A stretch of 64,000 nt of DNA. It comes from an uncultured virus (IMG/VR IMGVR_UViG_3300035498_000413). Taxonomy: Duplodnaviria > Heunggongvirae > Uroviricota > Caudoviricetes. Location of the stretch: positions 1 to 64,000 of IMG/VR virus record IMGVR_UViG_3300035498_000413, one strand, 5' to 3'. Positions 4,712-63,846 of this stretch are shown here, piece by piece. Below the pieces are notes generated by a model. That model saw only the letters and a program-made list of their open reading frames with translations. It searched no databases and had not been told where the DNA came from. Within the stretch, counting starts at the first letter, position 1, and the number at the start of each line of letters is the position of its first letter. A program made the translations under genes and the position numbers.

Positions 4712-4715
4712 TTCT

Positions 4716-7175: not shown

Positions 7176-7182
7176 TACCTTT

Positions 7183-7745: not shown

Positions 7746-7758
7746 AGGAGGTAACGTA

Positions 7759-7989: not shown

Positions 7990-8016
7990 TATTAAAATAT
8001 TAAAGGAGATTTAAAA

Positions 8017-8757
8017 ATGTTTAATAACGATTATAGTCTGTCTGATATTGCTGCTGCTTCTGGTAGAAACAATGGTAGCTGGGGAAATGGCGATGGTGCT
8101 TGGTTAATCATTATCTTATTCCTGTTCATGTTTATGGGCTGGGGCAACGGCAACGGTGGCTGGGGTAATAACAATGCCTCTAGTCAGGGCGCTTTAACTC
8201 GTGGTGAGTTAGCCCAGGATATGAATTTCTAGCAGGTCGAGAATGGTGTCCGTGGTATCCAGCAAGGTTTATGTGATGGTTTCTATTCTCAGAATACAAC
8301 TTTACTTAATAGCTTTGGCAACGTTCAGCGTGATTTATGTACCGGATTTAGCTCTGTTGCTTAGGGCTTTGATGCAGTTAATGCTAATATCGCTGATACT
8401 CGCTATGCAATGCAGGATTGTTGTTGCACCACACAGCGTAGTATCGACAGCGTTAAAGCAGAAGCATATCGTAATACTTGTGATATTACAAACGCGATTC
8501 ATGGTGAAGGTGAACGGACTCGCGCGCTCATTCAGGAAACTAATATGCAGAATCTGCGGGATCGCATGGCCGAGAAGGATTCAGAGCTGCAGAGCGCACG
8601 TTTCCAGTTATCCCAGTGCTCGCAGAACGCATATCTCGTTGACCAGCTGCGGCCTACACCTCAGCCTGCATACTTAACCGCCTCTCCCTATTCTGCTTTT
8701 CCTCTCGGTAATGCAGTGCCTTTCGGCTCTAATGGATGCAGCTGTGGTTGCGCCTAA
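8017..8757 (+). CDS. Late cassette gene 3: Gly-rich/transmembrane N-terminus, DCCC motif, coiled coil and GCSCGCA tail
   Basis: Joins 8017-8232 and 8410-8757 through TAGs at 8230 and 8362. Confidence 0.8.
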
Positions 8758-8772
8758 TAAGGAGGTAATACA

Positions 8773-9195
8773 ATGGAACTGACAAGTGTAGCAGCTCAGA
8801 GCGTGGCAGCTAACCAAGATGTATTATTCCTTAATACCGCAATTGAAGGTAATTGTTCAATAATGCACAGAAGTGGAAGTGGTCTAGTTAATTTGCGTGG
8901 TTTAACTAATGGCCAAAGTAGGGCTAGATATAGAGTGCTTTTTGGCGGGAATGTAGCGGTTCCCACCACTGGCACTGCTGGCCCTATCTCACTGACGATA
9001 GCTATAGACGGTGAACCTGTAGCTTCATCTACTATGATTTCTACTCCTGGTGCGGTGAATCTATATAACAACATTTCCGCAAGTATTTTCATTGATGTCC
9101 CTAAAGGTTGTTGCTCTTAGGTAACTATCCGCAATACAACCGCACAGACGATTTCAGTTCAAAATGCTAATTTAATAGTAGAAAGAGTGGCGTGA
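8773..9195 (+). CDS. Late cassette gene 4: beta-sandwich protein (BclA C-terminal/C1q-like by inference)
   Basis: RBS GGAGG. Reads through TAG at 9118 to TGA at 9193-9195; ends VQNANLIVERVA. Confidence 0.7.
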
Positions 9196-20900: not shown

Positions 20901-23195
20901 TTTTTTCTTCTTCAGTAAAAGGAGAAGTTTTCCATTTCATTCCATAACGAACAAAATCCATATTATTTATGGCAGGACGAATACAGTTTCTACAAACAGC
21001 AATATTATCAGTATTTATTAAACCATTAGTTTTAAGATAATTAAAAATTTCTTCCCAAGTATTAAAGACTAAATCATTAGATGTATAAAGTGTAAAATGA
21101 GCTTTAGCAGCTTCACTTATTTTTTTTAAAGTTTCTTCTGAAAAAGTTCTTCCTTTAAGGGATTGACTTATTTTTGCTTTCCATTCAGGAGTCCTTTCAA
21201 CTTTTTTTAGCTTTTCAATCGTCTCTGGAGAAAGCTTACGGCCTTTTCTCGCAATACTCATTTTTTGTTTTGCTTCTTCTGTATGCTTAAAGTGCATTGC
21301 TTTTTTGACTTCACTTAAATGCTTTCTCATCTCTGGAGTTCTTACTTTTCCAGTATTAGCTTTAGATATTTTATCTTTAGTTTCTTGGGATAATTTAAAA
21401 CCTTCCCCGCCGGGAGTTAAATTATATCCTTTATCTTTATTTTTATAGCTTTGATAATATTCAATCCAGAAACATTCTCGTTCATTTTCCTAGCTCGGTT
21501 CTACTTCTTCTATTACTTCCCAAGTAAAATTTTCAACACCATATTTTTTTAAAGCATTATGAAAATAATAATTTTCTGATTCAATGTGACGAAGATGTTC
21601 TTTTTTTCTCTATTCAAGAGTTCTACTAGTCTTACCAATATAAACTTTTTGATTTATATTGTTTGTTACTTTATAGATAATGCTCATATCATCTACTCCT
21701 TTTCTATAAATAAATTAAACTTATTATTATTAACCTTCTTATTATATATAAAAAAAGGATGAACCTCAATTAAACAAACTTGACACGGTATTACCTTATC
21801 TTTTAAAAGACTTAGGTTCCCTTACTCATAATGACATCACTGCCTTCTGAACCGTTAGCTCAACATCTATATGTTGAACACCTATGAGCAATATAGTTCA
21901 CGAATTTTTAGTTGAGCCTAACTTTTAACCCAACACCCGAGCCTCTGCCTGGCCCAACTAGACTTCCAGCTTCCCACACGGTATCAATAATCTTTTGCAG
22001 ATTTAGATAATATGCGCTCCAATGCGTTTTATTAACAATAGAAGAATCCCATGTCATCTGCAAACATTCATTTACAGCGTCATAAGTTTCTTGATTTTGA
22101 TAAGTAATTTCCTTTTTAATTGCTTGAATAATAACATTTGCGAGTATTTTATCGCCTTCATAATCAGAAGCAATGAATTCAAATAAATAAGGAATTTTCT
22201 TAATATAGAAATCCTTATCTGCGGTTGACACGTATTCTGGTATCTTCCAAGCCAGCTCAGGGATTTTAAGCGGTTTCCGCAAACTATAATCTTCACAAGC
22301 ATCTTTAATCTTGCGGATATTTGAGTAAGCTTTTTCTAACTCTTCTTTTGTTAAAGCGAGGCGAGACTCTAATTCTTCTGTATCCATCATATAAGTTGTA
22401 GCATAAAAAGCATCAACTTCTCGCTCGCCATCTTGAGAATTTAAGTAAGCTTTATGGACATATCTATCTTCGTTCTTGAGATAATGACTATCTGTTGTTA
22501 TAATATAAGGAATATCTAACTTTTCAGATAGAGTAATCAATTCTCGGTTTACAAATGTTTGCTCTTCAGAGGCAGAAGGTTGAAGTTCAAGAAAGAAATT
22601 TCCTTTACCGAAGAGCATTTCCATATTTTGGCACCAATGGCAGATTTTGGAATACAGCTCATCGATAGGAAGCTCTTTCCACTTTAAGATTTGGGTTGGT
22701 AGAACTCCGCCTAAGCAGGCAGTGCTCCCGATAATATGTCCTTTATTCTGGCCAATGATTTCTTCTAAGTCGCTATAATATGTAGGAACTCGTCTTGTGC
22801 GGCCTATCATGTAAGAACGCATCCAAGCTCTCGTTGAAATTTCTCTAATCTGCTGATGACCAATAGCGTCTTTTGCCAAAAGAATAAAATGCCAGTATCT
22901 GTCAGAGGTTTTATCAAAATTTTGAGCATTTAATCCATTTCGGCATAGATAGATTTCATTTCCAAGAATTACTTTAAAATCAGGATGTGTTTTCTTAATT
23001 TTTTCATAATATTTTTCTACTTTTACCGCATTGCTAATACATTCATGTTCAGTAATAGCGACTACTTCATGCCCTAGCTCGATAGCATAATCAATTAATT
23101 CTTCTGGCATAATGATAGAATCTCTAAGTCGAAGATTACTATATCCAGTATGGCTAATTATGAAGACTCCCTGGATAGTTCACTCTAGTCTTCAA
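17914..23195 (-). CDS. dnaE: DNA polymerase III alpha subunit, interrupted by a group I intron and a 4-nt insert near the start
   Basis: PHP domain (SLHN/HT, ITEH, GNEIY, TTDSHY); GRGSGVG|FILL splice junction; DVDIDVE, HAGGV, KYDLL and YGFNLSH motifs. Segments 23195-23157, 23152-21928 and 20510-17914. Confidence 0.92.
20511..21927 (-). mobile_element. Group I intron in dnaE
   Basis: P1 GTTGGGT/GCTCAAC, terminal G at 20511, S-like AGAGATAGTC at 20541-20550. Splicing restores GVGFILLN. Confidence 0.92.
20611..21687 (-). CDS. Intron-encoded GIY-YIG/NUMOD3 homing endonuclease with two TAG=Gln codons
   Basis: MSIIYKVTNNINQKVYIGKTSRTLE(TAG)R...GYNLTPGG followed by SEETKxKIS repeats; same frame as 20611-21330. 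Confidence 0.88.
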
Positions 23196-29183: not shown

Positions 29184-32100
29184 TTATTCCTCCCAAGGTG
29201 GCGCATCATCATCCACCATAATTTTAATATCTTCAATACTAACCATTTCGTGATTATAAGTAGTTGCAAACATCGGTTTTATTCTACAAGTTCCTAAATC
29301 CGCATAACACCAGAGATAAACTCCTTTATATCTACCTCTTCTGTTTTTATAAACTGACATTTTAATATTTGGAGTTTTAAATCTGCCAGAAGCAAGAACT
29401 GGTTCTAATTTAACGAGATCTTCGTCTTTTACGTTCAGTAGAATCATACCGACATCAATTTTCGCTTATACTTTTATTTTCATAAAAGGCTAGACTATAT
29501 CTTTACCATGCCTATTACTAGGTTTAGGTAGACCGTAATTCCCCTAAAAGGGTACTCCGCGCTACCGGATAGTCGTTGAACCTCTTCTCTCGAAGACAGC
29601 TGCTGATTACCTATTGTTTTACCACTTAGCACCTTATTAAGGCTTTTATTTCAGCTTATGGCATCTAATTAATTTTTTCTGCTTTCGCAACATTCGCACT
29701 TATAACTCAAAAAGTTATTATGCTGTAGTTTAATTAGCTTTAAGGCTTTCCAGCATTTTTCGGTCTAATAATTCCCTAAATTTCTTTAAGAAACGACTGT
29801 TTCTAGTTCTTTATAAATTTGATATTTTCTATCTAAGTGTTCTGAACAGCTATTATATAATTTAGTTAAAATTTTATATGGTTTTTCTGTACCGCCGCAT
29901 CGAATGTAATAATTATTTTTATCATCATCGTTGCGTTTTTCTAAATGAGAAGAAATATCTAAAATAGAGTTTATCCATTCTAATATTTCTTTAGTTCCAA
30001 CAATGTTTATAGCATAATTATTATATTGTTTAGTCTTATAAATACTTCCATCTCCATCAAAATATCCTAAAATAAATGGAAGATAAAATTCTTCTTCAAT
30101 AATGGGAGGTTTTAAAACCAAGCTTTTTTTCTGACCTACTCCATGAGCTATAAAATCTTCAACCATATTTTTACTATTAAAAGTAATTTTACTCATAGGA
30201 GTATTATTAGAGAAACCGCAGTCTTGGATAAAATCATTAATTTCAACGTTACTATTCATAAAATTTTTAAATTTAACTAAATGGTCTCTATCTTTTCTAC
30301 TTAAATTAAGAATTACAGAACCATTAGTACTTCTTTTATAAACGCATCCATCAGCGGCTATAAACCCTAACCAATAAGCTTTTTCTGGCGTATCTATATG
30401 ATGAAACTTACTATAGTCTGCTTCATACTTATGTCTATCATTATTTTCAATGTTATTTTCTTTTAACACTCTCGTAATTACAGTCCTAGATACACCATAT
30501 TCTTTTCCTATGTCTTTCATCGACATTTTTTGATTTTGATATTTATTAATAATATCTTTTAGCTGTTCGTCATTAAAAACTACTTTTTTCATTCTTTATA
30601 CCTCTTTTTTAAATTAGATTTTGGAATTATCTATATTATAAGTATAAAGAATTTTTAATTTTAAATCAAATTTTAAGAACCATCCAATCAGCTATCGACT
30701 TTGCACCTCGAAGCAAATTTTGGTCAGGAGTCTCGCTATCTGTATAGCTACCATTAAGCTGAGTGCCCGACAAAATAAAAACACCATAAGTATTAGCAAT
30801 ATCTTTTAAACGAGCTGAAAGCATAAAAAGAACATTGTCCTCACGCAACCTAACACCGCCGCTCTTCCTCGTAATCTCGCTTAAGATTTTTAAGCTAGTG
30901 TGAATGTAGTCATGGACCACGTATTTTACGTCATGGTCTCTAATGCCTTTTTTTATTTTGTTCTCGATATCTTGCAAAGAAAAATCTGGTAGTTCTTCTA
31001 TCCATAGTGTAGCTTGCTTAAGAATTTCTGCCGCCTTGATTACTCTATCTCTTTCTCCATCTTCATATTGACCATTCAGGATATGCTCTTCATTAACAGC
31101 AGAAACAAAAGCCAACATCATAGTTTGTACTTCACTCTTATCTTGCTCCGTAGCGATAAAAAGAGTTGGTTGAGATTTACCATTTTTAATCCACATACCA
31201 AAGTCAGGCTCATAGATTTCGTTGCACGCAAAATTACAGGCATCTGCCACCATAGTTCGTGTATTATGCGTAACAATAAAATCATTCATTAAGAAAAGAT
31301 GAGAATTATTATCAACAGTAAAACAAGTCATATCGGAATATTCTTCAATAGGATAAATATTAGTTATTGCTATATAGTCTTTATGTTCATTTCTTTTAGT
31401 AGAAGTTGCATATTTAGTAGCTCTTTCTACTTTACGAGAAAGTCTAAATAAATTAACTTTATTTTCCTTTTTACATTGAATACGAACTGTATAGCAACTT
31501 TCTGTATATTTCTCAGAGCGAGAATCCTCTATAATGCCTGTAATAAAACCAAGACTATGACACAAATCAACTACTTGGTCAATCATCACTTTAGAAGTAC
31601 TAGTAAAACTTGTACGTCCCTTGTCTTTGTCAATACTTCCATCAGTATCCATTAGCCCTTGAAGTAAAGCATAACGCTGTTGAATACTAGCTGTCATATA
31701 TTCTTCTGGGATAAATTTATTTTGAGAATAAACATTCATTAATTCTGGATACATAGAAATAAAATCTTCAACCCAAATTTTCTTTCCAGTATTGTTATCA
31801 AAGAAAACATAATTATAATTAAAATCGCTAGTTTTTCTATAGGTCCAATTCATAATATTAGCAATAGATGTAGGAAGTTCTTCATCTGCGCTTGAGAATA
31901 TAAGTTCTTTATTAGAATTTCTATATCTAAAACTACCATCTCCAAGCATTAAACCAAAAACATAAGGATCGATTGGAAGCTCTTTTTCTTCATATTCTAC
32001 CGGTTCATTTAATTTGACTCTAAATCTAAATCCTTTATTAGAAGAATCTTTAAAACCATTTTTCAATTTAAGAGTTCTATCAATAATCTGTTGAACTGAT

Positions 32101-33026
32101 TCAACCCTAGAGCTGTAACCTCTATGAGACTCGTATTGGTATTCCCACAAATGATCTTTGCAGCATTTCGCAGTTCGTCCGTCAGAAAATTCGACAATAT
32201 AAACTTGCTTCTTTTCTGTCTGCGGGTGGGTTTTAAGTACTCTCGTAGGCTTGCCATCATCTCCAAAAAGATAATCACCTGGTTTAATTTCGTCTACACG
32301 TTTATTGCCTTCAGGAGTCGGAATAATTGTGTCATTCGGGATAGCTTTACCTACCCCCGTAGCTGCTGAACGAAGATAAAATTTTCTAAGTCTCGCGCCT
32401 CTAGTAACCGTATTAATAAGAGGCCCGTAGAGCGGGATTCCAACTTCTGGATGTTTTTCCAAATCCTGGATAAGCGCGAGAATATCATCACCAGCTTGAT
32501 AGCCTTCAGTCCCATCGTCATCAACACATCTTAGTCTAATGTCATCAATACTAGCGTCAATCATTTCAGCTATTCCCGCAAGTGAAATGTTATCTAACCA
32601 ATCTTCTTGCTGTTGCTTCTTTTTTGTATCTAACACATTAGTTGGGTCATAGAACTGACGCATATCTAAGCCAAAATTATCATACGCCCGCATAAGAGTG
32701 AATTTCTTTAATCTATTGTAGTAATAATTAAAAGTATCTTGAGTAGCTATTTGTGAAATTTTAACTAGATATTCAGGACCTTTATTCTGATGAAAGATTG
32801 CATCATATTTCGGTCTGTTGCTTAAATAATCTATAATACTATCTATTGTGACGTCATTACCACTAGAATGAATATTATAAATACTACCAAAGACAATTCT
32901 ATGAAACTCTTGTGCAAAATCTTCATCAGTAATAGTATATTTATCTGTTTCATCCAAGATAGAAGGAGTATTTAACACGCATCCAATTACCTGAATAACA
33001 GCAGTAGTATCAATGTAATCGCTCAT
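29184..33026 (-). CDS. dnaB: DnaB-like replicative helicase with an intein and a group I intron (exons 33026-30687 and 29462-29184)
   Basis: Walker A AATGVGK|T split by the intein; DYIH and TQLN motifs; splicing restores AKSIAD|KIDVG; YKNRRG arginine finger. Confidence 0.92.
29463..30686 (-). mobile_element. Group I intron in dnaB
   Basis: Exon ends in GAT, terminal G at 29463, S element at 29493-29503, and CAACGACTA and AATCAGCAG core motifs. Confidence 0.88.
29786..30592 (-). CDS. Intron-encoded LAGLIDADG homing endonuclease
   Basis: N-terminal HTH; YWLGFIAADG and FILGYFDGDG motifs. Confidence 0.9.
   Translation of the reverse strand: MKKVVFNDEQLKDIINKYQNQKMSMKDIGKEYGVSRTVITRVLKENNIENNDRHKYEADYSKFHHIDTPEKAYWLGFIAADGCVYKRSTNGSVILNLSRKDRDHLVKFKNFMNSNVEINDFIQDCGFSNNTPMSKITFNSKNMVEDFIAHGVGQKKSLVLKPPIIEEEFYLPFILGYFDGDGSIYKTKQYNNYAINIVGTKEILEWINSILDISSHLEKRNDDDKNNYYIRCGGTEKPYKILTKLYNSCSEHLDRKYQIYKELETVVS
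31263..32345 (-). mobile_element. Ala-1 (class 3-type) intein, 361 aa, LAGLIDADG, in DnaB Walker A
   Basis: GVGK|AIPNDT...DHLW...GLMLGDG...GLMDTDG...MTCFTV...FIVTHN|TRT. Confidence 0.9.
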
Positions 33027-33636: not shown

Positions 33637-35763
33637 TTATTCAACCATATCTTTCATATCCAAAAGAATCAGCTCTAACTGTTCACACTGAGAAGGAGTA
33701 CAATCTCCAACTTTCTTGCCTTTACCAAGATATTTCTCAACAAGAGCAGTAATCTTCATTGCATTAGACTGATTCTGCTCCATAAGCGTACCAACGAGGT
33801 TTTGGAACTCACTCATCATGCCTTCAAAGTCATATTCCTTAGCAGCGGTAATCTGCTGTTTTTCATTAGTAACATACTTACCATCAGTCATTTCTGCTTC
33901 TTTGTCAATAGCCTTGTTAAGAGCGGAAACGAGAGCTTCGTAAGAAAAGTCAATCTCGGGTTCAATATACTTAAAGCGGCAACCGCACCGAATACTATTA
34001 TCAGGAGAGCGAAGAGTAAGTACCATGCGAGATGTACCATCTGCTAGCATCTTAGGGTGTGCATAAGCAATAATATCGCTCATATTTTCGATGATAGAAA
34101 GTGCAGAACTCTGAATAGAGGAACCAATCTGCTGATATTCAGCTCCGTTCTGCGGCTTAACTGTCTTTTCCTTGTCATGGGACAAAAACACGATTGCATA
34201 TCCCATTTGAGCCAGAGATCTAAAAGTGTCTTCAAACTCCTTTTTATATTTACTCCAGCCATTATTAGTCCATCCGCCATCTCCGATATTGTCAATTCCA
34301 AGCTGATTACAAATATACTTCTGACACATATCAGCAGCAATATCAGCGGTATCCACAATAACACTCTGGAAAGTTTCTTTAACTTCTGGCTTCTTCAACT
34401 CTCGCAAGACTTGCTTCATCTCGCCCCAAGATGTAATGTCTTGAGCCATCGCGCCCGGTATTGCGTTATCTTTACTACTTATAGTTTCCTATAAGAATAG
34501 ACTATATCTTTCTTCTTTTTTAAAGAAGCGAACCACTTCGATTTAAGGGGTTCTCACCCACCATTAAGGCCCTACTCCTATAGACGTATTTCACGTCGCC
34601 ATTTGGATAGTCGTTGAGCGTTCTTCCAAATTGGAAGCTTCGTTGCGGATTGCCCAATCTTTAATGATTTTACCATACCTTAGTCGTTACCCTCGCCGCT
34701 ATCTATATTACTATGATAGTTTGGTTATTAAAGCTCTAAGGGGTTTCCCGCAGTTCAATTCTTGGCGTTAATACAAATCACTTTGTATTACGGACTGTAA
34801 ACGCATTTTCAAATTTATCTAATTTTCTTTTTAAACAAAACTTTTTAGTATCAGAATCATAAGCTTTACTAAGCCATTCATCTGTTTTTCCTTCTGTATA
34901 TTCAACTTTATAAGTATTATTTGTACATCTGTGTTCTTGGCGAATAGAATTATTATATCCCAAAAATTCATTAATTTTAGAAATTACTTCATAAGTTCCT
35001 GTAAAATATGTTTTATATCTTTTAGTATCTTCTGAATAAGTAATCCCGCCATCTCCATCATAATATCCTAGAATCCAATAAAGTTGTAAATCTTTAGGTA
35101 CTTTTTCTTCTGTAGGATATTCTAAGTCTAAACTTTTATTTTGATGACAACCTAAAACTACTAAATCTTTTACCATTTTAGCACTATTAAGATGAACATA
35201 AACATTTGGAAATTTACCCTTTTGCGAAGCACTATGAGTTACTTTTTTATTAGAGCCAACAGCTTTTAAGAATTTTTCTAAATGCTCTTCGTCTTGAGGC
35301 TGCAAAGTAATATCTACTCGACCCCTATCTTCGCTAATTGAGCCATCCGCTGATAAAAATCTTAACCAATAAGCTTTTTCTTTAGTATCTATTTTTTTAA
35401 AATATGATTCATTTAAAGAAAATTTTCTTCTATTATCTTTTTGAATACCATATTTTTTACCTAAAGTACTTAAAGTATCAGGATTTATATCAAATTCTTT
35501 TGCTATAGTTTTATAGCTTTCTCCTTTCTCCAAATGCTTTTGAAGGTAATCCTTTCCAAGTTCTGTTAAAGAATATTTGTTTTTATAAGAAGAAACATAA
35601 GCGTTATTCATAATCCTCTTTCGAAAGCTAGGAGAAGATGACCTGGCATTTGAGTGCCGAAGGTCGTCTTTCCGCTTTTTGCAGGGCCAAATAAAAAAGT
35701 AATATAGCCGCTCAGATCTCGAGAAACCTTATGAGGCTGAACATTAAGAAGATTAATAGCCAT
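33637..35763 (-). CDS. AAA_24/Sak4-like recombination ATPase split by a group I intron (exons 35763-35613 and 34469-33637)
   Basis: Exon 1 has GPAKSGKTT; splicing restores LAFERG-Y-NAIPG; VIVDT Walker B and FLSH motifs. Confidence 0.85.
34470..35612 (-). mobile_element. Group I intron in the recombinase gene
   Basis: Exon ends in GGAT, terminal G at 34470, S element at 34500-34510, and GAACTGCGGGAA and CAACGACTA core motifs. Confidence 0.88.
34778..35611 (-). CDS. Intron-encoded LAGLIDADG homing endonuclease
   Basis: YWLRFLSADG and WILGYYDGDG motifs. Confidence 0.85.
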   Translation of the reverse strand: MNNAYVSSYKNKYSLTELGKDYLQKHLEKGESYKTIAKEFDINPDTLSTLGKKYGIQKDNRRKFSLNESYFKKIDTKEKAYWLRFLSADGSISEDRGRVDITLQPQDEEHLEKFLKAVGSNKKVTHSASQKGKFPNVYVHLNSAKMVKDLVVLGCHQNKSLDLEYPTEEKVPKDLQLYWILGYYDGDGGITYSEDTKRYKTYFTGTYEVISKINEFLGYNNSIRQEHRCTNNTYKVEYTEGKTDEWLSKAYDSDTKKFCLKRKLDKFENAFTVRNTK

Positions 35764-36743: not shown

Positions 36744-38054
36744 TTAATCAATTATAAATTGTTTCGCATAAGGAACTTCTGTAGCAATAGTATCATAGAA
36801 ATACTTCCATTCACTTAGCTTATGCCCCTTGCGTTGATGGCAAATATTCCTTAGAACCTCGTAATTTGCTGACCAAGTTCTCGTCTGCAACCAACTTTCA
36901 GGCAACATAGCAATGATACTTTTCCATACCTCTTTATCTTTAGTTTCTAAATATTCATCTCTAAGTAAATTTAATTTATCAATAATTTTTAAAAAATCAT
37001 CATATTCATTAATATAATGTTCTCCATAATCATAATCTCCATTGACTAAAGAATTTATTGTAGTATGCGAAACATTATATTCTTTTGCTATTGCCCTGCG
37101 GCTAATTCTTTCAGTAGATAGTCTAAATAAAATTTCTTCTCTTTGTTCTTTCGTTAATTTTCCTTTATAAGTATATGTTTTCGCAGGTTGAAGTCCATTT
37201 TTAGATCTATCAATACAATTTTCTTTAGGAGTTACCCATTCAAGATTTGATACTATATTATTTAATTTATTTCCATCTTTATGATTAACTTGAGTTTTTT
37301 CTTCTGGATTATCGTTATTTAAAAAAGTTTCAGCAACTAAAACATGAACTCTTCTATTTTTAAGTTTCCCATCAGTTTTATCGGTATTTACTCCCACGTA
37401 AGCATATCCATCCGCGCTATATTGCCATTTTAAAATAACTTCTGGTAAAGTATGATTATTATTAGTAGTATAAGACTTTCTTTTAATTCTTCCTTGGTTA
37501 CTTACTTCATATAGTCTCCCATATGGGTAATCTTTCCATATTTCTTCATTCTCATTATATACAATTTCTTGTGGAATATATTTTTTATAACCACGTAACC
37601 CAGATAGTTCAAACATATCAGGAGTAAATTCTTTTTCTAATAGTTTGTGCATTGTCGAAGTACTATTCGACGTTGTACCGAGCTTATAGGTGTCCATTTC
37701 CTTCCAGAAATAAATCGGTGCTGTAATATCCATAGATACATTAATCTGTCTAAGGAACTTGCGGTGCTCACTTCCAGATTTTACCAATCGGCACGCCAAA
37801 TCCATGTCGTTAGGCCCAATGAAATAACCTAAATCATAAACCTCACTCTCAAGAGAACCATTTCTCTTAAACTCTTCAAAAGTAAAATCAGGATTTTCAT
37901 ATAAATCATAAATTCTTTTTACTTTAGAATTAAACGATTTCATATAAAAATCTACAATATAAGCTGAGTCACTACGATCCCAGGAGTTCATAGGATTCCT
38001 CATACCTCGAATTGCTGCTTCAAAACCATCTGCATAAATATTTTCAATTTCCAT
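36744..38054 (-). CDS. ThyX-like protein carrying an in-frame NUMOD4-HNH endonuclease insertion
   Basis: AIRGMRNP, HRKFLRQI, EMDTYK, STMHK ... LPESW, NYEVLRNI, QRKGHKLSEW flank EIWK...YEVSNQGRIK and VNHKDGNKLNN. Confidence 0.7.
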   Translation of the reverse strand: MEIENIYADGFEAAIRGMRNPMNSWDRSDSAYIVDFYMKSFNSKVKRIYDLYENPDFTFEEFKRNGSLESEVYDLGYFIGPNDMDLACRLVKSGSEHRKFLRQINVSMDITAPIYFWKEMDTYKLGTTSNSTSTMHKLLEKEFTPDMFELSGLRGYKKYIPQEIVYNENEEIWKDYPYGRLYEVSNQGRIKRKSYTTNNNHTLPEVILKWQYSADGYAYVGVNTDKTDGKLKNRRVHVLVAETFLNNDNPEEKTQVNHKDGNKLNNIVSNLEWVTPKENCIDRSKNGLQPAKTYTYKGKLTKEQREEILFRLSTERISRRAIAKEYNVSHTTINSLVNGDYDYGEHYINEYDDFLKIIDKLNLLRDEYLETKDKEVWKSIIAMLPESWLQTRTWSANYEVLRNICHQRKGHKLSEWKYFYDTIATEVPYAKQFIID

Positions 38055-39034
38055 TAACTACCGCCTTTATTTCCATTGAATCCAAAATCTTGAGTTCTAT
38101 AGAAATCAATCCAATAGACTTCTCGTTCATTCAATTTCGTTCTAGGTACTTCTTCTAGTATTTCAAAAGTAAAATTATGAACGCCATATTCCTTCATGCC
38201 CTTATATAGTTTATTCTAAGTAGACTCATGAGATAAAGCAGACTTGATATGTTGCCGCCAGCGTTCTCGTATATCCACACTTTGACCTATATAAGCTTTA
38301 TCGGTATCTAAGCAAGTAATTTTATAAATTCCACAAACCTTGCTGGTTCCTTCAAACAAATGTGAAGAAAGAACGTCAAAAGCAGGTTTATAATAAATAT
38401 CCCATAAAATTTTATCTATAGCTTCTTTGCGCGAGAAGGTAGATTGAAAGTTCCTCAAAGCTTGCACATCCGCAATTTCCGCATCAGAGATACATAAACG
38501 ATAATAATCTTTCTTACGAAGCATTTCTTCTTTTCTCTATTGCTCCTAGAGGTATGTATCCTACTTTGCCCGCAATTCCGCTAACTTAGATTCCTCTTCT
38601 TTTATAGAATTCTAAATAGAAGTTTGTTTTAATGAGATTTCATCTTTAAAACTCTCTAGCTTTGATCTTAATTCATCCCGGTAATCTTCATATTCTCTTT
38701 GTAATTTTTCTTTCTCAGCTTGACCTGCTATTCTTAGACGTTCAGCTTGGTCATTTACTAAATCCTTCTGTTGCTTTTCAGAGTGTATAATCTAATCAGA
38801 AATATATAGTAAAGAATCTTGTTTATCTTTTAATTCACTTTTTACTTTTGAAGTTTCTAAAGTTAAATTTTCTATTGTATTTTTTAAGTCATTTGCTGTC
38901 TATTCTAATTGTTTATTTTCTTCTGCCTACTTCGCATTGAATTTAACAGTTTTTTTAACATCCTACTTTAAACTATAGGCATAAACTGCTAAAAAACAAA
39001 ATGCAAAAGCAAGAATACAAGCTACAATATCCAT
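38054..39034 (-). CDS. Membrane-anchored coiled-coil protein with C-terminal GIY-YIG nuclease domain, 9 TAG=Gln
   Basis: N-terminal TM helix (IVACILAFAFCFLAVYAY), long coiled coil, CGIYKIT...AYIGQS...RWRQH...EREVYWI. Its TAA overlaps the next ATG. Confidence 0.75.
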
Positions 39035-45290: not shown

Positions 45291-45318
45291 AAAAAGGGCG
45301 GAACTTAGTTCCGCCCTT
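45291..45318 (-). terminator. Intrinsic terminator ending the lysis operon
   Basis: AAGGGCGGAAC-loop-GTTCCGCCCTT followed by Ts on the minus strand. Confidence 0.85.
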
Positions 45319-45323: not shown

Positions 45324-45629
45324 TCAGATGTCGGGAGTAACATCATCTAAATCTTCAGCGCTAGAATTCATATCTTTCATTATAGTCTCAAACTTCAATC
45401 CGCCTGCGGTATTCTCTGCTTTTGCTTTAGAATAATAAAAAGCTTGACTTACTGCATAAGCGCCCCAAGGTAAACTTGACATTGCAGATAGCCAAGGCAA
45501 AGAACCTGTATAACCTTTAAATATGCAGATAAAAGCAAGAGCAATGAAAGATATAGTCATAATCCAAATTAAAATAGATTCTTGGACTAGTAGTGTTTTA
45601 GAAAATTCTTTATTACTTGAATTTCTCAT
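45324..45629 (-). CDS. Two-TM membrane protein, putative holin
   Basis: EFSK, two hydrophobic helices and FYYSKAKAEN; overlaps the endolysin stop. Confidence 0.65.
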   Translation of the reverse strand: MRNSSNKEFSKTLLVQESILIWIMTISFIALAFICIFKGYTGSLPWLSAMSSLPWGAYAVSQAFYYSKAKAENTAGGLKFETIMKDMNSSAEDLDDVTPDI

Positions 45630-46443
45630 AATATCTATGTAGCACCGCTGCAAACTCTTCACGAGTTAAGAATTTCTTATACTGCATTTTACCGTCTGAG
45701 CCAGTAATAAGATTATTACTCTCTGCCCATGTGCGGTCTGCGCTACTCCAAGAACTAGGATCCTTTTCGGCTAAAGATTTTAGGTATACATCCATCATCT
45801 TGTTAAAATCTTCTTGAGTCACGATTTCTTCCTCCTTTTGCGATTTCGCCTGATTAGTAGTGGTATTAGAACTAGCTGTAGTAGTTGTAGTCAATCTCTT
45901 TTTGAAAGCTAACCACTGACTTTCATCGCCTGTATCTGCGTTCCAACCAACGATGCCAGGACACTATTTACCATTTACATCGTAATGACGAATAACATGA
46001 TTAACATCAATATTATACTTATCCATTAAATATTTCACTAAGTCTACAGCATTATTAAGTGCAGCATCCTTGAAATAATAATTAGAGTCATTAGCATATG
46101 TCATCTTGCCAGTTTTATTGGTAGAACAAATCTCAATACCAATAGTATTTTTTAAAGTAGCTACTCCGTAGAGTGAACCACCTTTAGTAGCGTATTTAGA
46201 ACCACCACAATGCCAAGCATATCTATTAGCTATATCAGGATTAAACTAGACTATAGTTCCATCATCCACAATAAAATCTGCTGAGGCTTTTACGCTAGCA
46301 TTACTAAAATAAGACGCAGTGCTTGCCGCAGTACCAGCTTTAGAAGTCACACCGGCTGTATAATGAATTACGATATATTTAATTGAACGATTAGGCAAAG
46401 ATGTAGTATTTGTTGTACTAGTTTTCTTAGTAATATTTAACAT
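45613..46443 (-). CDS. N-acetylmuramoyl-L-alanine amidase endolysin (Amidase_2 plus SLH-like domain), 2 TAG=Gln
   Basis: YIVIHYTA, AWHCG, IGIEIC and RHYDVNGK(TAG)CPG; C-terminal LITG...TREEFAAVLHR. Confidence 0.9.
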
Positions 46444-46491
46444 TATTTCACTTCCTTTCAAAAGAAAAAAAAGAAGCACATAAAGCGCTTC

Positions 46492-47820
46492 TCATTTTCT
46501 TCTTAACAAGTATATAATTCCTAGGCTTGCGATTATACTCAAGACTATATAAACATAACTAGAGTCTCCAGTCTAAGGTACCTCCGCAAGTGGAATTGTT
46601 GTATCTAAAATAGTAGTTGTAGTAGATTTAATAGTATCTGTTTCTTTAGCTATTGATTCTTCGTTCTCTAAATCTGAGGTTTCTTCTTCGATAATAAATT
46701 CTTCGTTCTCTAAATCTGAGGTTTCTTCTTCGATAATAAATTCTTCTTTACGGGGAATTTCTTCCTCAATAATAGGCTCCTCTTCCGTGGGTAACGTTTC
46801 ATCAGGAAGAGGAGTCTAAATTGGCTTACTTACTATAGGTTTATTGTTAGAGCTAGAACTAGAAGGAATCTATGGAGTTTCTTCTTTTTCAGCTTTGATC
46901 CATTTACCATATAAAGTAGTATTGCTTATTAGTTTATAAGTAGAATCAGTTAAGATATTAGTTTGCTCTTCATCAGTAGACCATCCGGAAAATTTATAGG
47001 TTATTCCATCTATAACTTTATCTTCTGTAGAATAAAATTGTCTCGTAGATTCATCATAGCCTATGGTTATTTCTTTTCCTTCTTCTGATTTAGTATAATA
47101 AACTATATCTCCACTATAAGGAAGAGTATCTTCTGGATTTAAATCTCCATCTAATAAAATATATTGTAATGTAATACTATTATAGTTCTTAATAGCATCC
47201 ATATTAGCTATAATATTTCCATCAATATGCCATGGATTTGGGTCAGATGAACTTTCTGCTTTCTTTAAAGTATACCATTCTATATCATAAAACACAGGAT
47301 TTCCATCCTCGTCATACTCTTTTAGCAAATCTTTATCTACATATTCACCATTAAGCGTTATAATGGTTTTTGTCTCTAAAGATTTCTAAACAGCTTCTAT
47401 CGCTTCTTGCTTGGTTAATGGATTTTCTACCATGGTTTCTACTAATCCTTCAATTACTTGGCTAATTACCTAACTATTTTCTGATGAATTTCCTATAATA
47501 GCATAAGTACCATTAAAGGAAGATATATAATCTTTATTAGTAATAGTAGTAACTTCTCCATTCATAGTAATTTCAGTTTCGCTTTCTATCCAATTATTCC
47601 AAGCTTCTTCATCTATAGTAATCTAACTTTCAGAATCACTTAAAGCACTTGTAAAACTAGATATTGGTCTATTATTAACTCCATCAGCGGCTGAGTCTAA
47701 AATCTAACCATTAAGATTTACATACCAATTAATAGTTTCTGTTTCGGACTCAGCCGCTAATGCTATTGGCGTACAAAATAATAAAATACCTAAAAAAATA
47801 GGGACAAAACGTTTTGCCAT
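46492..47820 (-). CDS. Sortase-anchored surface protein: signal peptide, InlB B-repeat-like domain, VP(Q)TG, TM helix, RRK tail; TAG-recoded
   Basis: MAKRFVPIFLGILLFCTPIALA signal peptide; YKFSGWS...TTLYGKW repeat; acidic linker; VP(TAG)TGDSSYVYIVLSIIASLGIIYLLRRK-stop. Seven TAGs. Confidence 0.82.
46657..46746. repeat. 42-bp coding tandem duplication (EEFIIEEETSDLEN twice)
   Basis: Two identical 42-nt units starting at 46657 and 46699. Confidence 0.9.
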
Positions 47821-47846
47821 ATAACTCATCTCCTTTAATTTTGAAG

Positions 47847-47939
47847 TATGAGTTTGGTAGTCGGACTAGCTTAGTTAATACTTTAGCTTCCTAACTTTGC
47901 GTCCTAACTTTTCAGTTAGTTTGCCTTTTCATTCTCACA
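47847..47939 (-). promoter_or_regulatory. Cyclic di-GMP class I (GEMM) riboswitch
   Basis: Minus strand GGCAAAC-TAACT-GAAA-AGTTA-GGACGCAAAG...GCTAA...TAGTCCGACTACC matches the GEMM consensus. P1 is GTGAG/CTCAT; it lies directly 5' of the surface-protein RBS. Confidence 0.88.
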
Positions 47940-49173
47940 TTAATTCTGCCCTAGCAGCTATTTTAGACCTATAACAATTTTGAAGAGTTACCTCTCCATA
48001 GTAAGGTTCGCCGCGGAATACTTCCGAGGCCCGCCGCAGACCATTATTATTATTTTCATATACCTTTAAATCAACTTGTGCTTTATCATCGCCTTCAACG
48101 ATACAGATACAATTCTCTCCAATCCGCTAAAGCATAAGTTGCATTAAATCTATAGTAGTATTTTGCGCTTCTGTGATATATACGCCAGCTCTACTACCTA
48201 TATCCAGTCCTCTGCAATCAGAAGCAGGAATCAATATCAAAGTGCCTTCTTCTATCAGTCTCTCTACTGCTTCACAACCGCCGAATTTACCAATCAAGAA
48301 ATTACCAATCTATGAATCGAGAAGTTTAGATTCTTTAGACCCAGGATAAAAGCCAAGTCTAGCCGAGTCTTTAGTAGCGACAGGGTTACATAGAATAACT
48401 ATTTTGTCTATAATGCCTTTTTCTAACGCATACATAAGATAAGCCATTGCAGTATAAGACTTTCCTGTTCCAGCTTTACCTCTAATAATAGTCATGGTAT
48501 TGTTACACAAACTATCAAATAATAATTTTTGATAAATATCATTTTTATAAGGAATAACTTCACCAAACCAATCAGAAGTAAAAGAGTTGTAATTTAAATG
48601 TCTATATGAGTCTCCTTGCCACACTAAGACATCTGCTACTTTATCTTCTTCTCGTACTATCAAGTATTCTCCACATAATAAACCATAAGGGTTTTTATCT
48701 TGATATATATCTGCTACTGAGCTATCACTCACGCTCACTTCAATATATCCTGTATATTCTTCGGCGGGAGCTATAGCTTTAATACAGCCATCACCCAAGA
48801 ATTGATTCGCTAATAAAGCGAGAGAAAAATCATTTGTAACGAAGTCTATATCATCTATATGTAAATTGTTATTAGCATAAATAACATCTGATAGGATTTT
48901 AGAATCATTATTCAACTCGAAATCTGCTTCTACAATCGGTTTTTCGTAAGCACTTTTATGTAAAATTACGTCATACTTATCAGTATTTTCATATAAAAAT
49001 TTTAATAAATTTCTTGCTGAATACTTAACTTCTTCATTTTTATGAGTAGAAGTCTTTATATTTTCTAATTCTTTAATTGTAATAGAAGAAACTAAAAACT
49101 TGTTTTCGTCGTCAAAGCTGGTTTTTAGTAACAAACTAGATGTATCATAAAAGTTAATCATCTTCTTCTTCAT
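47935..49173 (-). CDS. phoH: PIN-PhoH protein, 2 TAG=Gln
   Basis: PIN domain (YDTSSL, KELE, NDSKIL, VTND); GKAGTGKS, LGFYPG, EAQN, L(Q)RIGE and GD..QVD; TGA at 47935. Confidence 0.88.
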
Positions 49174-49378
49174 CTCCTTCTTCGCCTAGAGTAAAACCAA
49201 TTACTCTAGTAGGTTCTTCTTCACCATTCAGCTTAGCTATTTTCGCATTAAGTTCTCCAATTTTAATGCTAAATTTAGCCTTAATTAATTCAGTAATATA
49301 AGTAATAATAGTTACTAATAAATCTAGTAAAGAAGTTCCTATAGTGGCAAAGAGGATTCCTAAAATAAAATACTTAAT
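49154..49378 (-). CDS. Small membrane protein with probable ATT start
   Basis: GGAGG-7 nt-ATT; IKYFILGILFATIG hydrophobic helix, VIGF motif and acidic tail. No ATG, GTG or TTG in frame. Confidence 0.55.
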   Translation of the reverse strand: MKYFILGILFATIGTSLLDLLVTIITYITELIKAKFSIKIGELNAKIAKLNGEEEPTRVIGFTLGEEGDEEEDD

Positions 49379-61172: not shown

Positions 61173-61763
61173 TCACGAACTGCTAGATGTTTGGCTACAA
61201 TCTGTAGTACAGGTATTTCCGCTTTTACACTTGGAGCTTGTTGTATTACCTGATTTACATAAGTTACAGCCTTTACAGCTATCACAAGTATTGCAACCAG
61301 TATTGCAAACAGTACACTGATTTTTTTCATAAGTTAAATCATTAGCTTTATTGGCTAAATCTTCAAAATAAGAGCCATAAATATAAGTTTTTCCTGCTGT
61401 TGCTCTTTTGGAGCTTCCCACTAATGCAGCATAATTATTAAACCAAGATGCTTTAACTTCTTTATCAGTTTGTGTTGTAATTCCGCTGGTACTCTTGCCC
61501 CCAATACCTTTAGATCTTAAAGCTTTAACATATGCAGGAAGCCTATTCCAATCGGTAAGTTTAATTAATTCACTTCCAGCAGTTACCCCGCCATTCCATG
61601 CAAACTTATTAGAGCAATCGATACTATAAACTTCTTGAACTTTACAATACGTTTGTGCATCATCACAGGTTGTACAATTACCATTGTCACAATTATTACA
61701 ACTATCATTACAAGTATTGCAGCCATCGCAGTCTTGACAGCTAACACAAGTTTCACAACTCAT
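61173..61763 (-). CDS. Cys-rich protein with CxxC repeat arrays at both ends; candidate rSAM substrate
   Basis: ATG at 61763 after AGGAG, overlapping the rSAM stop; 22 Cys in two terminal arrays. Confidence 0.75.
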   Translation of the reverse strand: MSCETCVSCQDCDGCNTCNDSCNNCDNGNCTTCDDAQTYCKVQEVYSIDCSNKFAWNGGVTAGSELIKLTDWNRLPAYVKALRSKGIGGKSTSGITTQTDKEVKASWFNNYAALVGSSKRATAGKTYIYGSYFEDLANKANDLTYEKNQCTVCNTGCNTCDSCKGCNLCKSGNTTSSKCKSGNTCTTDCSQTSSSS

Positions 61764-63408
61764 TTTTCTTCTCCTTTCTACAATAATTTTTATAATGACA
61801 TTCATTATCTAAATAATCTTTAAAAACTAAGTTATTTTCTTCTACTAAACATTTCATCATATTAACAGCGTGTTTAAACAAAATTTGGTTCCACCTACAA
61901 GCTACTTCTGGATTGATAAAGAAATCTTCATAAGTATCATAGTTAGAAGAAGGACAACCATTGGTCTGGCACACCTGCCGTAAGGGGCAAGTTTTGCAGA
62001 GTTCAGGCTTCTCACACTCATTTATTGCTTCTTTTGTATATTCATCTAACAAAGCTTCATGCTTTTTTCTATCTACGCCATTCCAAATATCACCGATAAA
62101 GAAGAAACTATTTCCATAAGAATCTTGCTCTTGACAAGCATAAATTCTACCATCATAAGAAATAGAAGCAGAAGTAGTACCAAGGCCGCATCTAAAAGGC
62201 TCGCGATGAATAGAAACATTATTAAATCTATTATGATAGAACTGTAAATCTCTATTTAATATATCTTCATAAGTTTTATCAATACGAGAGAAAGAAGTAA
62301 AAGGTTTATGACCCTCAGAAAACTGTAGATACATCAACGCAAAAATCTTCTCTACTTCTTCATCAAGTTTTTGAATATTTTCTTCTGACCAAGTTTCTCT
62401 ACCATTAGGCATTGTAAAGAAATTGCGGAAACCGTGCTCCATAGCGAAAACATACGAGTTAAAAGTGCCATCAACTGTAGCTTGGTCAATGGTTGCTCTC
62501 ATAGTGGTGTTTGGAAAATTCTGTAATAAATAGGAAATATTGGAAGCCGCCGCCTCATAACTACTTTGCCCATTCCGCATTGGACGATTTTTATCTTGAA
62601 CTTCTTTAGGACCATCGAAAGAAAGATGGGGATAGATATCATACTTCCGCATAAAATCAATTCTTTCCTTGTCTAGCAGCGTCCCATTAGTGGTCATTGT
62701 AAGAGTAATAGTATCTCCATATTTCTCTCTAATATGCTTAGTCAGCGGCACAATAATACTATCCCACATTATAGTAGGTTCACCGCCAAAGTAAGTAATA
62801 GAAGGATCTTGCTTAATTCCAGTTAATTCTTCCTTTTGTTTAACATTATTCATTAAAAAATCAACGCTTTGTTCTGCAATTTCGTAAGTCATATAGTGGT
62901 TACATTGCTTAACAAAGCAGTTATGAACAGCAAAACCATCTGCAAAATAAGTATGTTCACTAGTCTCAAAATTATAAACCTGCGTAGTTTCAAAAATTTC
63001 TTCGACAGATTCAATTATAGAACTATATAGCCCTATATCTCCAAATATGTAAGCCACATCGATCCCAGGCTTTAAATCTTTTACCTGGGTCCATTTATTT
63101 ACTCCAGTTAAGATAGGATGATTTCCTGTAAGATAAATTTTATGTTTATCCTTCGTAACAATTTTAAATAAAGTTCTAGCTTCTCTTACAAAAATATTAA
63201 GAACTTTAGTTGTTTTTACTCTATGGGGAGCTTCTTCTTCAAACCCCATAACTCTATCAGCGATTTCAATATCTTCAATATTTTTCGTGCTACCATCAGC
63301 CATTAAGATCTTAGTGCCGGCTGGTGCGCAATACTTGCATTCTAGGTTACACGCGTCAGTGAGGTTCAAACACACGCTACTAAAAAACGGGTAATGTTCT
63401 TTATACAT
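61753..63408 (-). CDS. Radical SAM/SPASM-domain enzyme with a mini-intein
   Basis: CNLECKY|C, YFGGEP, TTNG and SFDG; SPASM CGLG...IYAC...CKTCPLRQVC...GCP...AC. Confidence 0.92.
   Translation of the reverse strand: MYKEHYPFFSSVCLNLTDACNLECKYCAPAGTKILMADGSTKNIEDIEIADRVMGFEEEAPHRVKTTKVLNIFVREARTLFKIVTKDKHKIYLTGNHPILTGVNKWTQVKDLKPGIDVAYIFGDIGLYSSIIESVEEIFETTQVYNFETSEHTYFADGFAVHNCFVKQCNHYMTYEIAEQSVDFLMNNVKQKEELTGIKQDPSITYFGGEPTIMWDSIIVPLTKHIREKYGDTITLTMTTNGTLLDKERIDFMRKYDIYPHLSFDGPKEVQDKNRPMRNGQSSYEAAASNISYLLQNFPNTTMRATIDQATVDGTFNSYVFAMEHGFRNFFTMPNGRETWSEENIQKLDEEVEKIFALMYLQFSEGHKPFTSFSRIDKTYEDILNRDLQFYHNRFNNVSIHREPFRCGLGTTSASISYDGRIYACQEQDSYGNSFFFIGDIWNGVDRKKHEALLDEYTKEAINECEKPELCKTCPLRQVCQTNGCPSSNYDTYEDFFINPEVACRWNQILFKHAVNMMKCLVEENNLVFKDYLDNECHYKNYCRKEKKNEL
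62920..63330 (-). mobile_element. Mini-intein (137 aa, no endonuclease) inside the CxxxCxxC motif
   Basis: CAPAGTKILMADG...TGNHPI...VYNFET...FAVHN|C. Confidence 0.92.
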
Positions 63409-63427
63409 AATTTCTCCTATAAAAAAT

Positions 63428-63450
63428 AAAGGGAGGTTTCCCTCCCTTTT
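63428..63450 (-). terminator. Intrinsic terminator after the tRNA cluster
   Basis: AAAGGGAGG-loop-CCTCCCTTT followed by a T-rich tract on the minus strand. Confidence 0.75.
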
Positions 63451-63454: not shown

Positions 63455-63529
63455 TGGCAGAGGCGCTTCAGAATCGAACCAAGACCCGAGGGGTTAGAGC
63501 CCTCTGTGCTACCATTACACTACACCTCC
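63455..63529 (-). tRNA. Amber suppressor tRNA (anticodon CUA), probably Gln-accepting
   Basis: GGAGGTG/CGCCTCT acceptor stem, G73-CCA, D arm GTGT-AATGGTA-GCAC, anticodon arm GAGGG-CT[CTA]AC-CCCTC, GGTTCGATTC T loop. Confidence 0.9.
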
Positions 63530-63683
63530 ATATGTAAGATAGCTTATTTAGTCTTTAGGTTCTTTCTACATTATTTTCTACATTTAATTTTTCCGATTCT
63601 TTTCTCTATTGCTATCTAATTTATATAATTGATAAGATTTGTTAAAACATCATCGCCACGAGAAGGCTCTTATCTTGATGACG

Positions 63684-63769
63684 CGGAGCGAGAGGGATTC
63701 GAACCCCCGTGTCTCGTAGACACGCTAGTTTTCAAGACTAGGCTGTTATGACCGCTTCAGTACCGCTCC
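63684..63769 (-). tRNA. tRNA-Ser(UGA)
   Basis: CTAGT-CT[TGA]AA-ACTAG anticodon arm, long variable arm CGTGTC/GACACG, G73. Confidence 0.92.
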
Positions 63770-63772
63770 GTT

Positions 63773-63846
63773 TGGAGGTAGATGCCTGAATCGAACAGGC
63801 AACAAGATATTACAAGTATCTCGTTTTACCATTAAACTAATCTACC
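63773..63846 (-). tRNA. tRNA-Thr(UGU)
   Basis: GGTAGAT/ATCTACC acceptor stem, AGATA-CT[TGT]AA-TATCT, encoded CCA. Confidence 0.85.

Follow-up and report, generated by a model that had tools for sequence, protein, structure and literature searches.

A c-di-GMP-I aptamer and a TAG-recoded gene for a predicted sortase-anchored surface protein form an optional cassette in an uncultured phage

The IMG/VR record IMGVR_UViG_3300035498_000413 derives from an uncultured phage, and the first 64 kb of its 76.6 kb (hereafter the window) carry, on the minus strand between a phoH gene and an endolysin gene, a class I cyclic di-GMP (c-di-GMP) riboswitch aptamer followed by a gene that forms an open frame when TAG is read as glutamine (Gln). 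What would a sensor of a bacterial second messenger control in such a phage, and when could the gene behind it be translated? We propose that the aptamer and the gene constitute a promoter-less accessory cassette of a gut-type phage that reads TAG as Gln, and that translation of the gene needs both high c-di-GMP and the late code switch of the phage, a reading to which we assign a probability of about one half. The G+C content is 35.4%, and completeness according to CheckV is approximately 45%. Four related phage records were compared, namely this one (G000), G001, G002, and G003, all of them incomplete (12–79%). G001 is a 136-kb relative with approximately 96% identity to G000 in a whole-record alignment, and G003 is 100% identical to G000 across the 3.9 kb compared. 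The only DNA match to this 3.9-kb region in a phage database covered 141 nt of a PhoH gene. The features on which the argument rests first are the following.

47853..47935, minus strand: c-di-GMP-I (GEMM-I) aptamer, RF01051, 76.2 bits against a gathering score of 35, E 3.5e-13
46492..47820, minus strand: cassette gene, predicted secreted surface protein of 442 amino acids (aa), seven TAG codons, an open frame with TAG as Gln
46492..46581, minus strand: sorting signal within that gene, VP(TAG)TGD followed by a hydrophobic stretch, RRK, and the stop codon, with the TAG at 46573-46575

The whole window was analyzed with cmscan against Rfam, which gave five matches above the gathering score. The match to RF01051 spans model positions 1-87 of 87 without truncation, and the same result was obtained on the whole 76.6-kb record. 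In the printed cmscan alignment the GGCAAAC junction, the six-pair hairpin with its GAAA loop, and the GACGCAAAG junction are identical to the consensus. By covariance model, the RNA is a bona fide c-di-GMP-I aptamer. A preliminary description of this DNA, made from the letters alone, had placed a GEMM-I aptamer between phoH and a surface-protein gene and had proposed the Rfam c-di-GMP-I model as a check; the significant full-length match, well above the cut-off, bears this out. The same description had read a G at the position equivalent to G20 of the Vibrio cholerae Vc2 aptamer, and the cmscan alignment indeed has a G at model position 11, which we equate with G20 in the Vc2 numbering. An A at this position shifts specificity to 3',3'-cyclic GMP-AMP, and a G indicates c-di-GMP. 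Vc2 is reportedly the structural reference for c-di-GMP-I aptamers, through the work of Smith et al. 2009 and Kulshina et al. 2009. The phage aptamer is like Vc2 in its covariance family, its GAAA tetraloop hairpin, its two junctions, and the G equated with G20; unlike Vc2, it has a shorter second hairpin (four model positions deleted), an AU-rich helix P1, and a different expression platform.

The TAG codons of the cassette gene are codons 39, 66, 117, 145, 317, 335, and 416, and the frame is otherwise uninterrupted. With table 11 it falls into fragments, the largest of 152 aa. A start at 47829 was rejected and the second ATG (47820; MAKRF) is preferred, as in the homologue P0004, with GGAG nine bases upstream. 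The N-terminus, MAKRFVPIFLGILLFCTPIALA/AE, displays by eye the n-, h-, and AxA parts of a Sec signal peptide in codons 1-23 (MAKR, 18 hydrophobic residues, and ALA/A), and this arrangement is conserved in P0004 and in a second homologue, P0006. It is followed by an N-domain of approximately 190 residues that matches no family and by a Flg_new/SHIRT-like beta domain at residues ~215-315. The protein also has an acidic Glu/Pro linker, encoded with a 42-nt tandem repeat. At the C-terminus, VP(TAG)TGD precedes 21 hydrophobic residues and RRK, and with TAG as Gln the TIGR01167 LPXTG_anchor model scores 17.3 bits against a cut-off of 15.9. A [VA]PxTGD motif with a hydrophobic stretch and basic residues is kept in all four family members. 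The signal peptide and the VP(TAG)TG sorting signal with transmembrane stretch and RRK, both claimed beforehand, are therefore confirmed at this level, and the evidence supports amber recoding of the gene and a secreted product that ends in a sorting signal of the LPXTG type. All seven TAGs noted in the preliminary description were found; the one within the LPXTG-type motif, at the variable x position (N, K, or E in the homologues), has no special role, because translation without suppression would already stop at codon 39.

A B-repeat-like domain had also been claimed, which holds as a relationship and not as family membership. Phmmer relates residues ~270-315 to Flg_new proteins with up to 19 repeats (E down to 1.6e-14), but Pfam Flg_new (PF09479) gives the cassette protein 18.9 bits, below its gathering score of 27. 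P0006 scores 19.2 bits with Flg_new, and another homologue, P0007, passes SHIRT instead (23.0 against 22.4). On these profiles the beta domain is a relative of the Listeria-Bacteroides/InlB B-repeat fold class, and we do not file it as a member. A PDB profile search with the cassette protein gave nothing below E 0.49, and ESM Atlas queried with P0004 gave only leads below 0.9, to SHIRT/Flg_new clusters. The family itself is small. A word-indexed search of 5.8 billion clusters retrieved one full-length relative, P0004, with 70% identity over residues 1-321, and an exhaustive phmmer search of 1.84 billion representatives retrieved 40 proteins at E up to 0.001. The full-length relatives among these 40 are P0006 (42%) and P0007 (35%), three others (152, 38, and 31 aa) are table-11 fragments of the cassette gene or of a close relative's copy, and the remaining ones match the B-repeat-like part only. 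Standard-code gene calling fragments the gene in precisely this way, and such modules are easily missed.

The reading of TAG as Gln was examined across the record. The phage encodes a tRNA with the matching anticodon:

63455..63529, minus strand: suppressor tRNA, anticodon CTA, which would decode TAG; found by ARAGORN, Rfam tRNA 38.1 bits

Genes with TAG codons occupy a plus-strand block (170-9195) and the island of phoH, cassette gene, and endolysin, and the replication genes (polymerase, primase, helicase, topoisomerase II, ligase, and NrdD) are essentially TAG-free. The PhoH and Amidase_2 domain matches continue across TAG positions. When 108 in-frame TAGs were aligned between G000 and G001, 91 were TAG in both. 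In the 25 columns with TAG in a single genome, the other genome has CAG 12 times and CAA twice (14 of 25 Gln), the rest being AAG (3), TAA (2), TTG (2), and GAT, TAC, GGG, and TCG (1 each), with no TGG; some of the greedy open reading frames (ORFs) that enter this count are probably spurious. Likewise, codon 349 of phoH is TAG in the window and CAG in the relative L003, and TAG in the cassette gene aligns with Q of P0004 at two of five alignable sites. ORF coverage (72% with table 11, 86% with TAG as sense, 88% with TAA as sense) does not discriminate the code in this AT-rich genome. Gln codons in the cassette gene are TAG (7) and CAA (5), with no CAG, and this complete replacement of CAG by TAG argues for a long residence of the gene in recoded phages, which would in turn point to selection keeping the aptamer intact. 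Taken together, the sequence comparisons support TAG as Gln (genetic code 15) in this phage. Code 15 gut phages with suppressor tRNAs are reportedly the subject of Borges et al. 2022. Like crAss-like phages and phAss-1, the phage has a CTA-anticodon tRNA, confines TAG to a subset of genes that includes lysis genes, and keeps its replication genes free of it. Published work on code-15 gut phages agrees with a TAG-to-Gln reading (PMC9523058, PMC10879173, PMC10607447). Unlike phAss-1, whose description mentions no riboswitch (PMC10607447), this phage carries one.

Some further features of the recoded part of the genome were recorded. The suppressor tRNA belongs to a cluster (63455-63846, minus strand) with tRNA-Ser(TGA) and tRNA-Thr(TGT), next to a radical-SAM gene (61753-63450) with an apparent insertion. 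A reverse transcriptase gene (5114-6313, plus strand; PHROG 1423, 5.3e-78) has 19 in-frame TAGs, the densest recoding in the record, and forms part of a diversity-generating retroelement (3028-6313, plus strand) with its variable repeat at 3909-4030 and its template repeat at 4716-4837. This 122-nt repeat pair differs at 18 columns, all of them A in the copy 4716-4837, and the variable copy is the 3' end of a 338-aa gene (3028-4044). A 62-nt motif (TGGACAA ... AAATTTTTATATA) stands at 2531-2592, 4051-4112, and 7242-7303 (plus strand), before TAG-bearing genes of the plus strand, and may represent a late promoter or leader element. A 41-nt late-leader consensus had two matches (2545 and 4065) against 0.01 expected, none of them upstream of phoH.

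Comparison with the relatives showed how the aptamer and its gene are inserted. The features concerned are these.

46493..47931, minus strand: cassette of aptamer, expression platform, and gene, 1,439 bp, absent from G001 and G002
47935..49173, minus strand: gene for a PIN and PhoH ATPase protein, two in-frame TAGs; PhoH 2.5e-27, PIN_4 1.6e-08, PHROG 2765 2.6e-65
46471..46493, minus strand: terminator-like hairpin with U8 between the cassette gene and the endolysin gene, directly after phoH in the cassette-less relatives

G001 and G002 are 96-97% identical to the window on both flanks. A covariance search detected the aptamer in G000 and G003 but had no hit in G001 or G002, and a protein-family profile located the gene in the same two of four records, which answers the survey of related phages that the preliminary description had called for: in these four records aptamer and gene were gained or lost together. 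In the cassette-less relatives the phoH stop codon (TAA) is followed by a few bases, by the hairpin GAAGCAC-TTTAT-GTGCTTC with its T-run, and by the endolysin ribosome-binding site, and in the window this hairpin sits after the cassette gene instead of after phoH. The motif TGAGAA occurs at both cassette junctions. The candidate helix P1 starts at the junction, and therefore the cassette carries no promoter. It is also without a terminator of its own, the hairpin being shared with the relatives. Promoter-like matches in the phoH 3' end are weak (9/12; 25 in the region against 19.9 in shuffles, standard deviation 4.3). Two properties of a moron were thus seen, presence/absence and exact boundaries, and two were not, an own promoter and an own terminator. 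The preliminary description had set the unit inside the lysis operon. It does adjoin the endolysin gene, but 1,439 bp are missing as one piece from two relatives and a terminator-like hairpin intervenes; by this comparison it is an optional cassette that lacks a promoter and belongs to the phoH transcript, rather than a fixed component of a lysis operon.

Most other insertions in G000 relative to G001 hold homing-endonuclease genes, and the cassette is the examined one with a cargo gene. Clean insertions relative to G001 lie at 14709-15755, 29463-30690, and 31273-32345, the last of which is inside a helicase-like gene where an intein is suspected. At least seven GIY-YIG/HNH homing-endonuclease genes (13407-13967, 14818-15519, 20611-21687, 29786-30592, 34778-35611, 36744-38054, and 38054-39034) interrupt or flank replication genes, with NrdD and DNA polymerase in pieces, and a group I intron (54.8 bits) is present at 34478-34810 (minus strand).

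The leader between the aptamer and the start codon was folded, and the energies and pairing states reported here are those of thermodynamic models. Three strands matter.

47929..47938, minus strand: candidate 5' strand of helix P1, GUGAGAAUGA, pairing found by script
47843..47854, minus strand: switching strand AACUCAUACUUC, either 3' P1 strand or anti-Shine-Dalgarno strand; the minimum free energy fold has the latter pairing
47823..47833, minus strand: Shine-Dalgarno (SD) GGAG with spacer, GGAGAUGAGUU, paired in the ligand-free fold, with the start codon 2 nt on

Positions 47843-47851, the candidate 3' P1 strand, fall within the anti-SD strand (47843-47854). In the minimum free energy fold both aptamer hairpins are kept and a further hairpin, AACUCAU-A-CUUC / GGAG-AUGAGUU, covers the SD and ends 2 nt before the AUG. 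This hairpin alone is predicted at -9.9 kcal/mol, and the unpaired probability of GGAG is 0.005-0.011. Its 5' strand overlaps UCAUACUU, which can pair instead with GAGAAUGA just upstream of the aptamer and thereby close P1, a candidate helix of seven AU-rich pairs with one A-A mismatch. Without ligand, the OFF state is predicted at -23.7 kcal/mol and the P1 state at -15.5 kcal/mol, the latter being 8.2 kcal/mol less stable. Among 60 translation-start regions of the record, this leader ranks third in folding energy (-11.7 against a mean of -6.0, standard deviation 3.3), and only two have a less accessible SD (0.19 here, median 0.51). No terminator-like site was found in the leader (47820-47853), so control by transcription termination is unlikely. 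These folds make it plausible that the leader has the pairing logic and layout of a translational ON switch. Such a switch had been proposed from the competition of the 3' P1 strand with a pairing that hides the ribosome-binding site; the strand overlap and the strong SD hairpin hold up, whereas the P1 pairing does not rise above chance (z -1.0).

We therefore favor the reading given at the outset, which would work as follows. The cassette would be transcribed as the 3' part of the phoH message, ending at the old phoH terminator, and the c-di-GMP-I riboswitch at its front would act on translation. In the absence of ligand, AACUCAUACUUC would pair with GGAGAUGAGUU and bury the ribosome-binding site; once c-di-GMP is bound, AACUCAUACUUC would be taken into P1, the ribosome-binding site would be freed, and the gene would be translated. 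A full-length protein would also require the phage CTA-anticodon tRNA, that is, the late code switch, because the first of the seven TAGs is codon 39. Genes for GGDEF, EAL, sortase, and tyrosine integrase were found in none of the four records, and therefore the signal and the anchoring enzyme would be those of the host. The signal peptide would direct export of the product, and a host sortase would then link it to peptidoglycan at VPQTGD. On infected cells the protein may serve adhesion, receptor masking, or, as the preliminary description proposed, superinfection exclusion. The nearest database relatives of the endolysin, 35% identical, are from Agathobaculum phages, a weak hint as to the host, which is probably a Clostridia-type Gram-positive bacterium. 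A wider scenario is more tentative, and we hold it possible rather than probable: a virulent recoded phage would read host c-di-GMP late in infection, and only in cells with high c-di-GMP (biofilm-type cells) would the host sortase plant the phage protein on the wall of the cell soon to be lysed. Its purpose could then be to hold the burst site in the biofilm or to mask receptors on debris. Receptor masking, by which progeny are not wasted, has an analogy in Llp of phage T5.

Several observations weigh against the favored reading. P1 is a weak helix interrupted by an A-A mismatch, with a predicted duplex energy of -6.5 kcal/mol (z -1.0 against shuffled flanks), and because its 5' strand contains the phoH stop codon, ribosomes that terminate there may interfere with folding. 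Since G000 and G003 do not differ at all in the 3.9 kb compared, they provide no covariation for either conformer. DNA around the homologues P0004, P0006, and P0007 was not found in scans of metagenomes and prokaryote genomes, and viral scans for divergent leaders or homologue DNA returned only one near-identical contig. The first residue of the sorting motif is V or A and not L. The AlphaFold2 model, built from a four-row alignment, has a mean predicted local distance difference test score of only 34.8. Finally, with records that are 12-79% complete, the absence of integrase, cyclase, and sortase genes is not proof.

Some of these observations suit an unlikely alternative, in which the aptamer binds c-di-GMP but works differently: as an OFF switch, by altering how stable the phoH message is or how its 3' end is processed, or under the main control of ribosomes that terminate at the overlapping phoH stop codon. 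On the one hand, the P1 pairing is statistically unremarkable, the TGA of phoH abuts the aptamer within the 5' P1 strand, and C. difficile prophage c-di-GMP-I switches act negatively by termination (PMC7699646). On the other hand, the leader lacks a terminator-like site, and its only strong alternative helix hides the SD with a strand beside the aptamer 3' end, which is the geometry of an ON switch. It is equally improbable, in our estimate, that the riboswitch is a passenger from a donor, unused in this phage-host pair, with expression depending solely on the phoH transcript and the code switch. Two of the four relatives do without the cassette, which is thus dispensable, and no sequence variation shows selection on the leader. 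Yet every conserved aptamer position is intact at 76 bits, the gene had time to convert all CAG to TAG, and a pattern scan of one genome for each of 185,579 prokaryote species disclosed no bacterial relative of the cassette protein.

The genes downstream of the cassette raise a third alternative, and they are listed here.

45613..46443, minus strand: endolysin, N-acetylmuramoyl-L-alanine amidase, two TAGs; Amidase_2 1.4e-23, PHROG 1794 amidase 4.1e-36
45324..45662, minus strand: putative holin, small ORF (101-112 aa) with hydrophobic stretches and no TAG, assigned by position only
45294-45318, minus strand: strong terminator-like hairpin after the putative holin, from a scan for terminator-like sites

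An endolysin and a putative holin had been announced for this place. The Amidase_2 match secures the former, but the small ORF, whose hydrophobic stretches were read by eye, matches no holin family of Pfam, NCBIfam, or PHROG, even with E allowed to reach 1. According to this alternative, which we regard as very unlikely, the riboswitch times lysis, with ribosome traffic or read-through setting the expression of endolysin and holin. The end of the cassette gene and the start of the endolysin gene, both on the minus strand, are 48 nt apart, and the endolysin SD, GAAAGGAAG, can by prediction pair with the U-tract of the terminator-like hairpin before it (46443-46493, minus strand; SD-unpaired probability 0.14, the lowest among the most-structured leaders listed). 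However, that terminator-like hairpin separates the two genes, relatives without the aptamer have the same hairpin, endolysin leader, and endolysin, and a translational switch on the first gene does not itself control the second. The SD/U-tract arrangement, present in cassette-less relatives as well, may in its own right be a lysis-timing device. A last idea is that all seven TAGs act as stops and that the aptamer is a remnant in front of a decayed pseudogene. Table 11 does break the frame into pieces, but we dismiss this idea in view of 442 otherwise open codons, an uninterrupted database protein that is 70% identical over residues 1-321, TAG behaving as Gln genome-wide, and the encoded CTA tRNA.

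Upstream of phoH and overlapping its start, an unannotated 74-codon ORF (49154-49378, minus strand) has a good GGAGG site and an ATT start. It displays a hydrophobic N-terminus (one transmembrane helix by eye), a helical stretch, and an acidic tail, has no Pfam or PHROG match at E up to 1, and could be a second small lysis-type membrane protein.

The distribution of phage-borne c-di-GMP-I aptamers was surveyed on viral contigs. A loose pattern, GGCAAA-N(10-24)-GACGCAAAG, gave at least 119 stretches that were almost all chance: the single-sequence model matched none of 80 loci, and a closing stem of at least 4 bp was present in 4 of 120. It was replaced by a tighter pattern, with 77 stretches in IMG/VR, and the model then gave 73 matches in 80 loci (these 77 and three from the loose scan), representing 54 distinct contexts. 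In ten of the 54 the aptamer precedes a 50-58-aa ORF on AT-rich contigs resembling C. difficile prophages. In another seven (L137, L152, L156, L169, L177, L180, and L192, all IMG/VR contigs) it precedes a 108-128-aa ORF whose N-terminus is by eye like a CheY-type receiver. Two G+C-rich contigs (L146 and L147) have VWA/pilin-type surface proteins downstream of the aptamer. Of the ORF-less contexts with sufficient DNA downstream, L158, checked with TAG as Gln, revealed no recoded gene behind the aptamer, and among the contexts examined the identical copy of the cassette is the only recoded case.

That phages carry c-di-GMP riboswitches has been clear from the discovery of the class onward, and those of C. 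difficile prophages reportedly go back to Sudarsan et al. 2008. Like Cdi1_4 and Cdi1_5 of C. difficile, the phage aptamer is of the GEMM-I type, lies in phage DNA with a probable Clostridia host, and stands beside host-lysis genes. Cdi1_4 and Cdi1_5 occupy the PhiCD119-like lysis-module region of prophages phiCD630-1 and phiCD630-2 (PMC3649979). Each stands before the antitoxin RNA of a type I toxin-antitoxin pair, and when c-di-GMP is high transcription ends prematurely (PMC7699646). Whereas those prophages are temperate and use the standard code, here the aptamer precedes a protein-coding surface gene, its predicted layout is that of a translational ON switch, and it belongs to a TAG-recoded phage in which no integrase was found.

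Riboswitch-controlled adhesins provide the second comparison. CD2831 and CD3246 of C. difficile are wall-anchored. As in these proteins and in CbpA, a riboswitch reading c-di-GMP would here switch on an LPXTG-type wall protein. Those known genes are chromosomal and of collagen-binding families, and CD2831 uses a class II aptamer; unlike them, the cassette gene is recoded, resides in a phage, and belongs to a family of which only four members were found. CbpA of Bacillus thuringiensis is described as a c-di-GMP riboswitch-controlled sortase-anchored adhesin (PMC7423583), and another paper describes CD2831 and CD3246 as c-di-GMP riboswitch-controlled adhesins (PMC3649979). The cassette can also be set beside other accessory phage genes. 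Prophage-encoded LPXTG proteins exist, for example SasX of Staphylococcus, and classic morons are prophage-expressed units equipped with a promoter and a terminator of their own. Like morons and SasX, the cassette gene is a dispensable, precisely bounded extra phage gene for a predicted sortase substrate; unlike classic morons, it has no promoter or terminator of its own, would ride the phoH transcript, and would be readable only after the code switch.

A literature search combining stop codon recoding, phage, and riboswitch found only unrelated work, and in the titles and abstract starts covered no case of a phage-borne c-di-GMP riboswitch with a sortase substrate is described. Each half has precedents, in c-di-GMP riboswitches of phages and in LPXTG adhesins under riboswitch control; their combination is new. 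The phage cases studied concern temperate Clostridioides prophages in which the riboswitch governs small RNAs, whereas here it precedes a surface gene in a TAG-reassigning phage. The locus thus offers a compact, testable case of a host second messenger and a phage code switch acting on one gene, for which natural relatives with and without the cassette exist for comparison. If true, our reading would show that riboswitch-gene units travel between phages as promoter-less cassettes. The wider scenario would mean that a phage makes a lifestyle-dependent decision by riboswitch, doubly gated by a second messenger and a genetic-code switch, and that it may adjust the surface of its dying host to the lifestyle of that host.

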